In this document: piece by piece, positions 4,307-48,405 of the stretch | Numbering within the stretch: the first letter of the stretch is position 1 | Layout: every line of letters begins with the position of its first letter | Source of the DNA: Gammaproteobacteria bacterium | GTDB taxonomy: Bacteria > Pseudomonadota > Gammaproteobacteria > Magnimaribacterales > TMED112 | Length of the DNA: 64,000 nucleotides | Reading direction: 5' to 3' | Assembly (NCBI GenBank): GCA_038133485.1 | Contig: JAYPTH010000004.1 | Location: 1,023 to 65,022 of the forward strand | Position numbers and translations under genes: made by a program | Notes under the pieces: generated by a model | What the model was told of the DNA's origin: nothing | What the model saw: only the letters and a program-made list of their open reading frames with translations | The model's database searches: none

Positions 4307-5307
4307 TGGTTTGTTGCTTTTGCATACATATTTAGTTTTAAAAGCACTTTTCCTGAAAGTAATTCTTTTTTAGCTAAACTGATGCCCTCCTCTAAGTTGC
4401 TAACAATGCCAAGCAAATATAAACAAAGACCTGAATTTAGGGCTACCATATCTAGTCCTGGGCCTCTTTTACCATTAAGGATTTCTATTCCAAAAAGATA
4501 AGCTTCCTCAAGAGAATTAACTTGTATATCTTCAATAGAACATGCATCAAAGCCATAATTTTTTGGGTCAAGCTCCCATTCGTTAATTTTGGCACCATTA
4601 ATCTCAGTAATAAATGTAGGCTCATGTACACAAACTTCATCTATATCTGAAAATGAAGTTACCACCATACCACGCTTAATACCGTTATTTTGTAGAGCTT
4701 TAGCCATATGTTTATTTAATTTCTTATCAGAAGTTCCAAGTAATTGAAATCTAGGTTTTGAAGGATTTACTAATGGGCCAAGTACATTAAAAATAGTTCT
4801 GACTCCAATATTTTTTCTTACTTCAGCTACATTTTTTATTTTTGGATGTTGATTTGGTGCAAATAAAAAAGCGATGTTCATAGATTTATAGATGTTTAAT
4901 AGTTGATCAGTCGGTGCTTGGAGATTAATCCCTGCACGTTCTAGAAAATCAGCACTTCCTGATTTACTAGTTATAGAGCGATTGCCGTGTTTAATAACTT
5001 TTCCACCACAAGCTGCTACTGTAAATGCTGACAGTGTAGAACAATTAAAGATAGACTTACCAGATCCCCCTGTCCCACAAGTATCTATATAATTGCTATC
5101 TAAATTTGAAGTAAATGTCGAAAACTTCAATACCTCTTTAGATAATGATGCTAAATGCTCATAGTTAATCCCTATTGAATTTAAAGTCAGCAATATTTTT
5201 TCTTTATCATCATATGAGCTATCTTCGCTTATTAGGTGCTCAAATATGAAAGACAATTCTGATTTATGCGCTTCAGGTGCTTTTAGAATATCAAGTAAAT
5301 TAAGCAT
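4294..5307 (-). CDS. trpD: Anthranilate phosphoribosyltransferase
   Basis: DTCGTGGSG, KHGNRSITSKSGSAD, RTIFNVLGPLVNP. Confidence 0.95.
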   Translation of the reverse strand: MLNLLDILKAPEAHKSELSFIFEHLISEDSSYDDKEKILLTLNSIGINYEHLASLSKEVLKFSTFTSNLDSNYIDTCGTGGSGKSIFNCSTLSAFTVAACGGKVIKHGNRSITSKSGSADFLERAGINLQAPTDQLLNIYKSMNIAFLFAPNQHPKIKNVAEVRKNIGVRTIFNVLGPLVNPSKPRFQLLGTSDKKLNKHMAKALQNNGIKRGMVVTSFSDIDEVCVHEPTFITEINGAKINEWELDPKNYGFDACSIEDIQVNSLEEAYLFGIEILNGKRGPGLDMVALNSGLCLYLLGIVSNLEEGISLAKKELLSGKVLLKLNMYAKATNQWIT

Positions 5308-44662: not shown

Positions 44663-44692
44663 AAAAAAAAGCCCCTTAGTGTATAAGAGGCT
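44663..44692 (-). terminator. Rho-independent terminator
   Basis: Minus strand AGCCTCTTA-TACAC-TAAGGGGCT then a U run; the stem contains a G.U pair that works only on the minus strand. Confidence 0.85.
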
Positions 44693-44853
44693 ATTCCATA
44701 AGTAAATATTATGGTCGGATTGGATTAAGTTATTGTCAGTAACTACCTCCCAATAATCCTAAGTTGTTATATATACTAATTTGGATCACCTCCTTATGCA
44801 GAGAATTAATCTAACACGTTGTACTCCTCTGGTTTAGCAGAACGTGCGACTCT
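44663..44853 (-). ncRNA. Putative ~190-nt sRNA or leader RNA with a 16-nt complement of the 16S rRNA 3' end
   Basis: Hairpins GCACGTT/AACGTGT, GGATTA/TAATCC with AGTTA/TAACT, CCATAA/TTATGG, then a terminator; TAAGGAGGTGATCCAA at 44796-44781. 5' end inferred from a TAATAT -10-like hexamer. Confidence 0.65.
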
Positions 44854-44880
44854 AAATCAATATTAATTTAATTATTAAAT

Positions 44881-45045
44881 TTAGAAAAGAGATTTTTGTA
44901 TTAAAGAATCATCTTTGGCTGACTGCAATAAACAGATGAATTCTTTAGCTTGATCAAGATTATTTGAAAAATATTGAAAGGCAATTTTTTTAATTGCCAT
45001 TTCATCAATTGGGTCTTTTAAAAAATAATTTGTTAGTTCTTTCAT
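44881..45045 (-). CDS. 54-aa hypothetical SOS-regulated microprotein (absent from the ORF track)
   Basis: MKELTNYFLKDPIDEMAIKKIAFQYFSNNLDQAKEFICLLQSAKDDSLIQKSLF*; fills the gap exactly and starts at the LexA box. Confidence 0.7.
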   Translation of the reverse strand: MKELTNYFLKDPIDEMAIKKIAFQYFSNNLDQAKEFICLLQSAKDDSLIQKSLF

Positions 45046-45064
45046 ACTGTATAAGTATACAGTA
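45045..45064. promoter_or_regulatory. LexA (SOS) box
   Basis: TACTGTATAAGTATACAGTA = CTGT-N8-ACAG, 18/20 to the E. coli consensus TACTGTATATATATACAGTA; overlaps two minus-strand TATACT -10 hexamers. Confidence 0.88.
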
Positions 45065-45073
45065 TATTTGGAT

Positions 45074-45102
45074 AAAAAAAAGGGGAGGTTACCCTCCCCT
45101 TT
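45074..45102 (-). terminator. Rho-independent terminator of the TonB receptor gene
   Basis: Minus strand AAAGGGGAGG-GTAA-CCTCCCCTTTTTTTT. Confidence 0.92.
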
Positions 45103-45119
45103 AAATCACGACTAAATGA

Positions 45120-48100
45120 TTAGAATCTCCAGTTAACTGCAGCAGTAACTTCTCTACCAACTAGGAATAAGTTGATCTCACGATCAAACACGTCTTCTGT
45201 GCCGTCATAATCCATTACGTTGTTAAAGATGACTCTGAATGTTAGGTCGTCTGATGCTCTATATCCAATACCAGCATCCCAAAGAGTATACCCTTTGAAC
45301 TCTGTAATTGGCTTACCATCATAACCTATGTATTCATCATCGTACTGTCTAAATGCGCTAATGACTCCACCTGATCTTGAGTTACCTGATAGGTATGCAT
45401 ACCACTTATCATAGCTGTACTCGAAAGATGTATCGTAGAACCACTCATCATTTCCGAATTCTCCTGTTGTGTCAGCAAGGTCATCTGGGTTACCACTGGC
45501 AGCATTCTTGAAGTATACCTGTTGGTATGCTCTCCATCTGACTGCTAATGAACCAAGATCTGTTGCAACGTTATCTCTAGTAACGAATGAAAGAGCTTCA
45601 GAAACTTCTGTTCTAAAGTCTGCATTCCAGATGTATGTTGCAAATTCAATTAAACCTGCGTTCACAAGACCTGCTGTCCAGCTTACGAGCTGACCATCAG
45701 CGTCTCTTGTGAAGTTATCACAATATTTATTTGGATAATCTTCGAAGTCATAACATGCAACCAAGTTATCACTTAGTGAGAATGATGTTACATAGTCTTC
45801 TAGATTAATCTTAATGTAGTCTGCTGAGAATTGTAGATCACCAAACAATACGTCTGACCACCAGCTAGGCTGATAGATAAGACCTAATGCTTCAGTGTCA
45901 GCAATTTCGTTAGAAAGATTTGGGTTACCACCCTCTAAACCTTGAACAGTAGCGTTAACACCAATACTCACAAAGTCTGGAGCCAATCCTTCAGCAAGAC
46001 AGTTTCTTTCTCTAACATCTGGTGCTCTACCTAATCCTCTGTATCTAAAGTCACATGGATCTGGTCTAGCAAATGCGTAAGAAACAACCTGCTCTAAGAA
46101 AAGGTCACCTAAGTTAGGTGCTTTAACAGCTGTTTGTTCACTAACTCTAACTGTAATGTCATCAGTAACTCTCCATGCCAAAGATGAAGCCTCAACATCA
46201 TATGTTCCAGCTAAGCTGTTATCAATATTTCTTGCTGAGAAGTCAAAGACCAATGAATCAACAAATGGCAATGTGAAATCACCACCTACTAAAGGTACGG
46301 ATACCTCAAAGTATGTAGCATCAATTTCATAGCTACCACCTACATCTTTTCTAGAAGCACTTCTTGTCAATGCATTTGGTTGAGCAGCACCTGACATGGT
46401 TGTTATTGGAGAGTAAACAGTATCACCTCTTTCAACTCTTCCTTCCCAACCTATAGCCATACCAACTGTACCGGCAGGCATTTCAAAGATGTCACCAGAC
46501 AATGAAGCGAAAGTCATTTCCTGTGAAATAACACCTTGCTGTCTAATGTCTACGCCGACGTAGTCTCTAGCTGCTTGTGATGGTGCGCCTCTACCCATTA
46601 CGTTTAGTGGAGCACAATCCCCTGGGGAACCAAGGATACTACCACCAAATAATGTATCACCATAAATTGGTGTTGGAGGACCGTATACGTAAACATAGTT
46701 TAGTGGGTTAAATGCAGGATCGTAATTCATCTTACAATCAATCTCACCTGTTGCTGGGTTTATGCCAACATCAAGTGCAGCTGCATATCTAGCACCGATA
46801 ACTGCTGGTGCACTAGAATAAATAACTGTTTCACCAAAGCTATAACCTGCTGAGTATAGGAATTCGTTATCGTCAAGTGCAAAGTTACCTTCTACACCCA
46901 TGGTAAAGAATTCAGTATCGTTTCTATTTTCAATGGTATAACCACCGTCCCCCTTTTGTAGAAGGTCAACGTGAGATTTTGAAACCCATAGGGAATCTTG
47001 GCCATTGGCTGCAATAATATCTCTTGAACCCGCTGTGAGGTAAGGGTTGTCAATACCTATGTAAATTGGTGTGTCTTGTCCTGGAGCAAACGCATATGTT
47101 GAGTATGGATAACCAGACTGGTTACCATAGTCGAATGCAAAGAATCCATTTTTATAGACATCCAAATATAGTTCTAAATTGTCAGTAATATCGTATGTTG
47201 AGAACATGCTGAAGTTTAATCTTTCAAAGCCTGCTCTGAAGGTGTCATAGTCACCTCTAAAGCCATCATCACTATCGATAGCGAAGAAAGCGTTACCATA
47301 TGGAATACCAACGTTAAATACACCTAAGTCACCTGGTCCTGTGAAGTGATAGTGATTACCATCAGGCCATAATCCATAATATGGGTTTGAAGCATATGTA
47401 GCACTAAGTGCTAGTTCTGTATAACCTGGTGATGCTCTACCTGTTTCTGGTAGGGTTGATAATGTTACACAACCATGTGGAGCAACAGTTTCGCCATTAA
47501 AGCTGCCATATCTTGCAGCATAAGGCACTGTACTACCTTTACCAATCCATTGTGATTGATATGGTGCATCAGCATTGTATGCGTTAGCTCTGAATAAGCT
47601 ACCACAATCACCTGTAGCCTTGTTGTAGTATCTATCTACGTCTCCAGTAAATACTGTACCAACTTCATCGTACTGGAAGTTAACAACAATATTACCTCTG
47701 CCGTTAGCAAAGTTACCACCCATTGCATACTGGAAGCTGATATCTGAAGAAAGACCAGCATAGTCATCATAGATTAATGAAGCATTAGCTCCTTCAAAGT
47801 CATCTTTAAGTATGTAGTTGATAACACCTGCAATAGCATCTGAACCATACACAGCAGAACCACCAGCATTAACAACTTCAACTCTATCAATCATGACAGA
47901 CGGGATGTTGTTAAGGTCAACAGCGGAACCACTAGCACCAGATCCTATCGGAGCTGTAGAACCAATAAATCTTCTACCATTTACAAGAACAAGCGTTCTA
48001 CCTGAACCTAGGCCGAAGTTGTTAGCAATAGCCTGACCCACACTAAGGTCACTCTGGTTACCAAAAGCTCCACCTGAACCCTGTGTTAGTGAGTTTGTAA

Positions 48101-48374
48101 CTCCTATACCAGGTAGGTCAAATAACGCATCAGAAGCATTTGTATAGCCTCTGTTTTCGTATTCCTCGCCATAAATAATTTGAATTGGTTGTGAAACTTC
48201 ATATTGGCTTCTAGCAATTCTAGAACCTGTCACAACCACTTCTTCTGGCTCGGCTTCATCTTCATCCGCAGCTACTTCTACCACTTCTTCAGATGCTGAA
48301 TCAGCACCTTCTTGGGCAAAAGTAAAGCCAAAGAATCCGAGGGAAATCAAAAGAAAAAGTAATCTTTTAGTCAT
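45120..48374 (-). CDS. Large TonB-dependent receptor
   Basis: Signal peptide, EEVVVTGSRI, RTLVLVNGRR, VDLNNIP, GSAVYGSDAIAGVIN, C-terminal WRF. Start moved to MTKR (SD GGGGA). Confidence 0.95.
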   Translation of the reverse strand: MTKRLLFLLISLGFFGFTFAQEGADSASEEVVEVAADEDEAEPEEVVVTGSRIARSQYEVSQPIQIIYGEEYENRGYTNASDALFDLPGIGVTNSLTQGSGGAFGNQSDLSVGQAIANNFGLGSGRTLVLVNGRRFIGSTAPIGSGASGSAVDLNNIPSVMIDRVEVVNAGGSAVYGSDAIAGVINYILKDDFEGANASLIYDDYAGLSSDISFQYAMGGNFANGRGNIVVNFQYDEVGTVFTGDVDRYYNKATGDCGSLFRANAYNADAPYQSQWIGKGSTVPYAARYGSFNGETVAPHGCVTLSTLPETGRASPGYTELALSATYASNPYYGLWPDGNHYHFTGPGDLGVFNVGIPYGNAFFAIDSDDGFRGDYDTFRAGFERLNFSMFSTYDITDNLELYLDVYKNGFFAFDYGNQSGYPYSTYAFAPGQDTPIYIGIDNPYLTAGSRDIIAANGQDSLWVSKSHVDLLQKGDGGYTIENRNDTEFFTMGVEGNFALDDNEFLYSAGYSFGETVIYSSAPAVIGARYAAALDVGINPATGEIDCKMNYDPAFNPLNYVYVYGPPTPIYGDTLFGGSILGSPGDCAPLNVMGRGAPSQAARDYVGVDIRQQGVISQEMTFASLSGDIFEMPAGTVGMAIGWEGRVERGDTVYSPITTMSGAAQPNALTRSASRKDVGGSYEIDATYFEVSVPLVGGDFTLPFVDSLVFDFSARNIDNSLAGTYDVEASSLAWRVTDDITVRVSEQTAVKAPNLGDLFLEQVVSYAFARPDPCDFRYRGLGRAPDVRERNCLAEGLAPDFVSIGVNATVQGLEGGNPNLSNEIADTEALGLIYQPSWWSDVLFGDLQFSADYIKINLEDYVTSFSLSDNLVACYDFEDYPNKYCDNFTRDADGQLVSWTAGLVNAGLIEFATYIWNADFRTEVSEALSFVTRDNVATDLGSLAVRWRAYQQVYFKNAASGNPDDLADTTGEFGNDEWFYDTSFEYSYDKWYAYLSGNSRSGGVISAFRQYDDEYIGYDGKPITEFKGYTLWDAGIGYRASDDLTFRVIFNNVMDYDGTEDVFDREINLFLVGREVTAAVNWRF

Positions 48375-48405
48375 AATAATCCCCAAATTAATTAAAAATT
48401 AACTT

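Follow-up and report, generated by a model that had tools for sequence, protein, structure and literature searches.

A LexA-boxed 54-residue microprotein with a clamp-binding-like C-terminus in the marine SAR86 group

Here we report on a small gene located on the minus strand of a 64,000-nucleotide (nt) stretch of DNA (referred to as the window; positions 1,023 to 65,022 of contig JAYPTH010000004.1, assembly GCA_038133485.1), which belongs to a SAR86 bacterium of a TMED112-type genus with a genome assembly of 964 kb, 35% G+C and 89% completeness. The gene encodes a microprotein of 54 amino acids (aa), abuts an SOS box, i.e. a putative operator of the repressor LexA, and ends in the codons of QKSLF, a pentapeptide resembling the motif through which proteins dock on the beta clamp (DnaN). 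The comparison with related genomes lends good support to a small protein that would be induced by DNA damage and would carry a clamp-docking tail. Our best reading of the locus, held with modest confidence, is a LexA-repressed three-helix microprotein that would be tethered to the beta clamp by its tail; the binding of the tail to the clamp, taken by itself and judged from sequence, we consider probable.

A preliminary description, made from the letters of the window, had proposed a 54-codon open reading frame (ORF) ending in QKSLF, an SOS box that overlaps two TATACT hexamers and touches the ATG, and an upstream terminator that separates the ORF from a TonB-dependent receptor gene. Indeed, we could validate each of these features (Table 1). 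The second hexamer stops 8 nt short of the ATG, and the terminator-like hairpin (10 pairs and a T run, 45102-45079 on the minus strand) lies between the ORF and the receptor gene (45120..48386, Plug domain detected with Pfam). The terminator scan returned two such sites against 0.4 expected, and the hairpin is present at 14 of 15 genome loci, the exception being L011. The lexA gene presupposed by the description was also found, preceded by a box of the same type.

The operator, which we take to be close to the E. coli consensus box, differs at two positions from the 20-mer standing before umuD in the same genome. A genome-wide scan with the 20-mer consensus (at most one core mismatch and at most five mismatches in total) yielded seven sites, and only three sites in the entire assembly combine an intact core with three or fewer mismatches, namely those before umuD, the microprotein ORF and lexA. 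The umuD box is located 5 nt before umuD in a umuDC operon (Peptidase_S24 followed by IMS domains, Pfam) and the lexA box 2 nt before the ATG of lexA (G000:C10:29872; LexA_DNA_bind and Peptidase_S24), while a weaker box with a single core mismatch lies 8 nt before recA. In addition to the operator in the window, the boxes map to C10:14945-14964, C10:29851-29870 and C7:11733-11752 of the source genome (G000). Across 30 genomes of the genus, near-consensus boxes with an A/T-rich spacer recur at lexA, at about 15 kb from lexA and at the microprotein ORF; the box about 15 kb from lexA, on the same contig, is that of umuDC in the source genome, and a UmuC-like frame was present in two other loci inspected. 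From this we conclude that the microprotein gene is one of only three or four operons in a minimal LexA regulon, and that it is very probably LexA-controlled, where we infer repression and induction from the operator.

With all four boxes (umuDC, lexA, microprotein and recA) ending 0-8 nt before the start codon, the SOS transcripts appear to have no leader or almost none. Shine-Dalgarno-like words precede 107 of 632 long ORFs, against a background of 8%, and are thus scarce enough that a leaderless or Shine-Dalgarno-free start appears normal in this genome. Regarding further boxes, the bare core CTGT-N8-ACAG occurs twice in the window (0.5 expected; 6 of 100 shuffles reach two), and the other copy, CTGTAAATGCTGACAG at 5019-5034, has no A/T-rich spacer as found in working boxes and probably arose by chance. 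In one genome of the genus a box precedes a helicase-like gene, which we take from its N-terminus to be UvrD-like.

The microprotein ORF was identified in the source genome and in 14 of the 29 other genomes of the genus by tblastn and profile searches, where weak hits within long ORFs with an expectation value (E) above 1e-4 were dropped as chance, and on 41 metagenome contigs by a pattern scan. The 45 distinct proteins comprise 49-56 residues (one is cut by a contig end), none shows a frameshift, and the relatives are only 35-52% identical to the protein of the window. Conservation of the ORF and of its SOS box, both anticipated in the preliminary description, was evident: the box lies against the ATG in all 56 loci, with the 20-mer identical in 55 of them and carrying a single change in the 56th. 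Purifying selection was seen as well, with 32, 21 and 40 variable columns at codon positions 1, 2 and 3 (first 42 codons of 47 distinct sequences) and a median ratio of nonsynonymous to synonymous divergence (dN/dS) of 0.154 among 410 pairs, or 0.048 for the 30 pairs with dS below 0.5. We therefore have hardly any doubt that the microprotein gene is real and protein-coding. In three genomes (G017, G028 and G029, which are 95, 97 and 90% complete) lexA is present and the microprotein gene was not found; the EamA gene, the downstream neighbor in the window, has a different upstream neighbor in G017, G005 and G029.

The most informative comparison came from an SOS-box scan of five complete SAR86 genomes from three other families. 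Besides lexA, umuD and recA, the scan revealed a boxed ORF of 70-72 aa in two genomes of one family; the two proteins share a LAFKYF core and end in QLELPFN or QLEFTF, and the protein of the window had weak tblastn hits there (E 0.0096 and 0.054). A profile built from these two ORFs identified the gene, which codes for proteins of 70-84 aa, in 97 of 139 genomes, covering all nine genera of that SAR86 family (hereafter the sister family), and also hits the ORF of the window at E 0.0029. Alignment of the genus-level and sister-family alignments with hhalign gave a probability of 91.8% (E 7.2e-7, 30 columns), the core AF[KQ]YF is shared, and both families have the gene order microprotein, structured small RNA (sRNA, see below) and EamA-like gene. 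Because of the shared position and the hhalign match, we regard the two families as homologous. The genus version differs from the sister family by an 8-residue deletion in the core, by a box that reaches the ATG itself and by the degeneration of its tail in most lineages.

We examined 50 sister-family loci, 30 from the search and 20 added for the remaining genera. A LexA box was present in 48 of them, 4-16 nt before the ATG and with spacer letters that differ from the box of the genus; one of the other two loci is cut by a contig end and one has no box within 45 nt. The sRNA core follows the ORF in 42 of the 50 loci, and in the five loci that are long enough an EamA-like gene, read from its N-terminus, comes next. 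In a large protein database the sister family comprises 570 clusters at 90% identity without a Pfam domain, and the names among the matches listed (120 of the 570 clusters) are either missing or "hypothetical protein". The profile of the genus-level family, searched against 1.84 billion representatives, returned only five proteins, all from the same genus-level family; it is too narrow to reach the sister family, which was found only via the SOS-box scans. In a third SAR86 family (G036), a different ORF of 62 aa without a Pfam family has a LexA box touching its ATG (L188:1519-1704, plus strand); its C-terminal half looks hydrophobic by eye, and the product could be an SOS effector of the membrane type. 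This suggests that small lineage-specific SOS effectors turn over in this order.

Clamp-binding motifs, like LexA regulons, are textbook matters. As given in the accessible part of one source, the motif is Q-phi-x-L-F or Q-phi-x-L-x-L (phi, aliphatic), positions 1, 4 and 5 matter most, and alanine at position 2 weakens binding less than changes at 1, 4 or 5 (10.64898/2026.05.27.728225); an excerpt of another gives QL(S/D)LF (PMC9690074). Searching the last 12 residues for Q-x-x-[LMFI]-[FLI] or Q-x-x-[LMFI]-x-[FLI], we found a fit in all 49 distinct sister-family proteins as well as in all of the best 120 of the 570 database clusters, compared with 27 of 874 long ORFs of the source genome used as a control. 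The tail forms include QLEF[STAL]F, QMEFSF, QLELPFN, QLELFS, QLELL, QPELLH, QPELSF, QPELI, QPELFSENRCS and QLAMF, as well as QLELF and QPELL. The Gln is invariant, a Glu stands two residues further on in almost every case, and the 15-25 linker columns preceding the motif show no consensus. Position 2 is L in 37, M in one and P, which is not aliphatic, in 12 of the 50 loci. Among 25 proteins ending in QLEFxF, synonymous variation occurs at every conserved position (CAA/CAG, TTA/CTA/CTT, GAA/GAG, TTT/TTC), from which we conclude that the constraint in the sister family acts on the peptide.

In the window, Q at position 1, L at position 4 and F at position 5 of QKSLF fit the motif, and an exact C-terminal QxxLF occurs in only 2 of 1749 ATG-initiated ORFs of at least 50 aa genome-wide, with an expectation of 1.6e-4 per protein. 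The UmuC frames of the genus carry QMNLF (source genome), QMSLF and, in a relative, QTDLF, the last of which indicates that a non-aliphatic residue at position 2 is tolerated in this lineage.

For the sister family, an AlphaFold2 model of one member (49-row alignment) comprises three helices over residues 11-48, with a predicted local distance difference test (pLDDT) score of 86-93 per block over residues 11-50, followed by a coil tail of the last 15 residues (58-72) with block values of 62-70 over residues 51-72. The sister-family architecture is thus predicted to be a folded domain with a short linear motif on a flexible tether. For the protein of the window (14-row alignment, mean pLDDT 73.9), helices were predicted at residues 2-10, 15-25 and 30-53, i.e. 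a three-helix core at about residues 1-42 and then a variable tail; with 7 K, 5 D and 3 E the protein is hydrophilic and, read by eye, slightly acidic. We are confident of a domain-linker-motif architecture, and the arrangement of a domain, a variable and probably disordered linker and a C-terminal clamp-binding-like peptide appears from the comparisons to be the ancestral and most widespread form.

The microprotein could not be assigned to a known family. No Pfam family matched it with the cutoff relaxed to E 10, and the two NCBIfam hits, of one member each at E 0.067 and 0.24, are at chance level. The best E was 0.0094 in PHROGs and 1.3 among PDB sequences, and the ESM Atlas yielded nothing usable. 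The earlier impression that this is no known SOS gene, including any DinI, YebG, DdrR or PsiB type for which these libraries contain a model, was thereby strengthened for Pfam, NCBIfam, PHROGs and PDB sequences, a set of searches that does not include profile-profile comparison. Our literature search returned nothing on a LexA-controlled stand-alone microprotein with a clamp motif, nor on the SOS system of SAR86.

Several known systems share individual properties with the microprotein. SOS-regulated clamp clients, the Y-family polymerases, are represented in this genome by UmuC with its QMNLF and have the same type of LexA box, a Q-x-x-L-F peptide and the same regulon; in contrast to these, the microprotein lacks a catalytic domain, consists at 49-84 aa of a three-helix domain, a linker and the motif, and has K at position 2 in the window. 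Like SulA, SidA, YneA, SosA and DdrR, which belong to the small SOS effectors known as division inhibitors, it is small, probably under direct damage control and lineage-restricted, and its host lacks SulA (PF03846 was not found in five of five genus genomes, four of which are 91-93% complete and the fifth, the source genome, 89%). It has no homology to SulA, and the conserved C-terminal Q-x-x-hydrophobic peptide points to the clamp rather than to the divisome. Unlike SidA, YneA and SosA, as far as their partial descriptions go, it shows no transmembrane segment by eye. DdrR is described, in the accessible part of its source, as a genus-restricted, cytosolic and domain-less SOS division inhibitor of 76-78 aa in Acinetobacter, which lacks SulA; the microprotein likewise appears cytosolic and has no recognized domain (PMC13689564). 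Clamp-targeting small proteins are known as toxins, namely SocB of Caulobacter and RipA of Streptococcus pneumoniae (PMC12795458). According to the excerpted descriptions, these belong to toxin-antitoxin pairs for which LexA control is not described, whereas the microprotein has a LexA box and no antitoxin gene. In summary, the microprotein would resemble a clamp client in its action, it resembles an SOS gene in its control, and it belongs to no named family.

On our best reading, LexA would occupy the operator, with which the likely -10 hexamers overlap and which extends to the first base of the ATG, and DNA damage would lead via RecA-stimulated LexA cleavage to a leaderless or near-leaderless, Shine-Dalgarno-free mRNA. 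The product would be a small acidic three-helix domain with a linker and a tail that may dock in the hydrophobic pocket of the beta clamp, and during the SOS response docking would place this domain at the replisome. In that position, the microprotein could compete with polymerases for the pocket and thereby act as a replication brake or in polymerase-switch control beside the co-regulated UmuDC, or it could recruit or block a partner of its N-terminal domain. That its effect is a brake or a switch on replication or translesion synthesis is a tentative suggestion, which we rate as possible but rather doubtful.

Several observations weigh against a clamp-tethered microprotein. The preliminary description had expected conservation of the QxxLF end, and this holds for all 49 distinct sister-family proteins but for only 11 of the 44 complete distinct proteins of the genus (QKSLF in nine, QKDLF in two). 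The other 33 do not fit the motif and end in xS-I-x-F (13), YFN (5), NKLS or NRLS (4), SSFTK (1) or in a truncated form (10). The ten truncated proteins terminate as ..E[QK][KN]N, e.g. EQKN, without a hydrophobic end. Core and operator stay intact in all 33, which means that the core must do something by itself in lineages that have lost the motif. The K at position 2 of QKSLF departs from the aliphatic preference of the motif. In the model of the window's protein the tail forms the end of the long helix, with a pLDDT of 52 in the last block and no clear coil. No informative structural relative of the N-terminal domain was found with Foldseek or VIA-align: the window model had no PDB match at E up to 0.001 in Foldseek and a best Z of 6.1 to generic helical proteins in VIA-align, and the sister-family model reached E 9.2 at best and a best Z of 3.4, the latter to scattered helix-turn-helix domains far below a meaningful level. 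The sigma-70 scan called no minus-strand promoter at the operator, its sole hit being on the plus strand within the palindrome, so that the promoter is deduced from the two TATACT hexamers only. Finally, the last 18 nt of the gene are near-invariant. QKSLF and the stop codon (CAA AAA TCT CTT TTC TAA) are identical in the lineages of the source genome and G010, the G008 lineage differs only at the S-to-D codon, and the sole synonymous change among eight distinct sequences is a TCG in one metagenome sequence, at a median dS of 1.27 elsewhere. Since other synonymous sites are saturated, a constraint at the DNA level may add to that on the peptide, e.g. from the promoter of the sRNA.

A DnaN tree with 21 rows, from which genomes without a complete dnaN were left out, has QK[SD]LF in two of the deep ORF-bearing lineages, and most of the remaining tails fall within a single crown clade, with the basal branching unresolved. 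In the source genome, the 3' end of dnaA is lost in a scaffold gap of 100 N (G000:C1:17837-17936) together with the first domain of dnaN, so that the clamp sequence of this genome is available only from about residue 112.

The retention of core and operator in the 33 genus proteins without the motif also fits the alternative that we take most seriously, namely an SOS checkpoint effector whose three-helix domain acts on another target, such as the divisome, RecA, LexA or UmuD, with the tail serving as a degradation tag or as another docking peptide. SulA was not found in the five genus genomes searched, DdrR sets a precedent for such an effector in SulA-less Acinetobacter, as far as described in the part of the source available (PMC13689564), and the third SAR86 family has its own, different boxed 62-aa ORF. 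We nevertheless consider this explanation unlikely, as an invariant Gln with hydrophobic residues at +3 and +4/+5 behind a variable linker matches the clamp motif specifically. We know of no degron rule that requires the Gln. The two explanations are compatible and do not exclude each other.

The near-invariance of the last codons can also be explained differently: QKSLF might be incidental, with its codons held by promoter elements of the sRNA gene, which starts about 30 nt downstream, and without any docking role in the genus. In line with this, the tails of the remaining genus lineages differ and fit no motif, and behind the stop codon 14 of the 15 genome loci have a -10-like TAnTAT, and L007 has TATATT (by eye). 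We judge this to be improbable, because the motif is retained in the sister family while its codons vary freely at synonymous positions, the distribution of QK[SD]LF in the DnaN tree would fit an ancestral motif that decayed in the crown clade, the unresolved basal branching notwithstanding, and no convincing -35 hexamer is seen by eye over the last codons.

The sRNA itself is encoded between the microprotein gene and EamA. There is no terminator between the end of the microprotein ORF and the sRNA, and a LexA-derepressed transcript would run into the latter. In an alignment of 29 distinct sequences, 95.3% of cells are paired, and 13 pairs changed on both sides, compared with at most four in slid controls; several helices show covariation, and a pseudoknot candidate pairs CAGAG with CTCTG, which becomes CAGGG with CCCTG in other families. 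Rfam gave no match. A 23-nt core, searched with up to three mismatches, occurs in 47 of 266 genomes of the order, in three families and once per genome except in G051, which has two copies, and a variant of the sRNA follows the microprotein gene in a fourth SAR86 family. The sRNA thus adjoins the microprotein gene in two families; in the other two it stands alone behind a gene for a 436-aa transporter, facing a convergent gene. In a lineage with NKLS/NRLS tails (L009, L010, L110, L111, L112 and L116) the sRNA is missing, and the EamA gene starts about 70 nt after the microprotein gene.

Positions 44783-44795 of the sRNA (the minus strand reads TAAGGAGGTGATC) form a 13-nt perfect complement to what we take to be the 3' end of the 16S ribosomal RNA (rRNA). 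The 13-mer is the only copy in the genome, and an A-to-G change in other families would keep a G-U pair with this presumed rRNA sequence. Taken together with the LexA box, this gives room for a wider picture, in which a LexA-induced plug or adaptor on the clamp would constitute a replisome-level SOS checkpoint with a SulA-like role, for which no counterpart has been described, and the same transcript would run on into the sRNA, so that DNA damage might throttle both replication and translation; we regard this picture as speculative and on the whole unlikely. A shared function of ORF and sRNA was considered and set aside, since inherited synteny is the simplest explanation for their common order with the EamA-like gene in two families.

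Other identities of the sRNA were also considered. A riboswitch-like leader of EamA is unlikely, given its position behind the 436-aa transporter gene and facing a convergent gene in two families, although it may apply to the two families in which the sRNA precedes EamA. A CsrB/Rsm-type sRNA was rejected as no CsrA gene was found, 6S RNA as it was found elsewhere in the genome, and signal recognition particle (SRP) RNA as the element has no Rfam hit. A 14-codon, ATT-initiated mini-ORF behind the 13-mer does not look coding, with 8, 10 and 10 variable columns at the three codon positions and the stop lost in one sequence.

Metatranscriptome data overlapped part of the stretch in 16 runs, of which the contigs of four were examined. 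The contigs cover the TonB-receptor gene as well as the sRNA and EamA and leave 44842-45079 uncovered, where contigs cannot show absence. They stop near the TonB-receptor terminator (45084-45146), although contigs cannot show transcript ends, and on the far side (44761-44827) they span the sRNA together with its terminator and reach into the beginning of EamA, with one ending at 44827 in adapter letters.

A small LexA-boxed ORF directly followed by a structured sRNA is also reminiscent of an SOS-induced toxin, either SocB/RipA-like or of a type I TisB/DinQ-like kind with the sRNA as antitoxin, and clamp-targeting toxins do exist according to the accessible part of one source (PMC12795458). This is very improbable here: the protein is hydrophilic and has no hydrophobic stretch of membrane length by eye, the sRNA is encoded on the same strand rather than antisense, two other SAR86 families have it as a solitary element at a distance from any such ORF, the six complete loci of the lineage with NKLS tails have the ORF without an adjacent sRNA, and the ORF list contains no adjoining gene for a protein antitoxin. 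Least credible of all is that the box is a chance palindrome or serves another purpose, e.g. as a roadblock behind the TonB-receptor gene; the second bare core in the window and the lack of a called minus-strand promoter would fit, but the 20-mer remains identical beside a fast-evolving ORF in 55 of 56 loci, recurs with a different spacer before the homologue in 48 of 50 sister-family loci and stands before lexA, umuDC and recA.

Table 1 Features of the microprotein locus. Coordinates refer to the window.
Feature	Coordinates	Strand	Basis and remarks
LexA (SOS) operator, TACTGT-N8-ACAGTA type, TACTGTATAAGTATACAGTA	45045..45064		last base is the A of the ATG of the ORF
Two TATACT hexamers, candidate -10 elements, inside the operator	45066-45061 and 45059-45054	minus	read from the sequence
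Microprotein gene, 54 codons and stop	44881..45045	minus	ORF list; stop codon 44881-44883
C-terminal QKSLF pentapeptide, clamp-binding-motif-like	codons 44884-44898	minus	translation
Hairpin and T run resembling an intrinsic terminator, at the close of the upstream TonB-dependent receptor gene	45069..45102	minus	terminator scan
Conserved structured sRNA, about 190 nt	44663..44852	minus	own -10-like TAATAT 44865-44860; own terminator 44692-44670

Apart from the locus, one further observation concerns the SRP RNA of the group. The bacterial small SRP RNA model (RF00169) gave nothing at E up to 1 in the source genome and in five single-contig SAR86 genomes (G008, G017, G032, G034 and G036), together representing four families, compared with matches in 13 of 14 control genomes, and a search of the source genome for the conserved SRP loop as a regular expression gave no convincing site. 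Either the first-look filter misses this RNA, or the SRP RNA of SAR86 is unusual.

SAR86 ranks among the most abundant bacteria in surface ocean water, where ultraviolet light is the obvious source of DNA damage, and the microprotein family is abundant in ocean metagenomes. That LexA control has been kept in a streamlined genome of about 1 Mb argues that the gene matters for surviving DNA damage. The close match of the operator to the E. coli consensus should ease heterologous tests. If the tail binds the clamp, the microprotein would be a compact natural tool for investigating polymerase traffic at the clamp and would represent a new kind of SOS effector.

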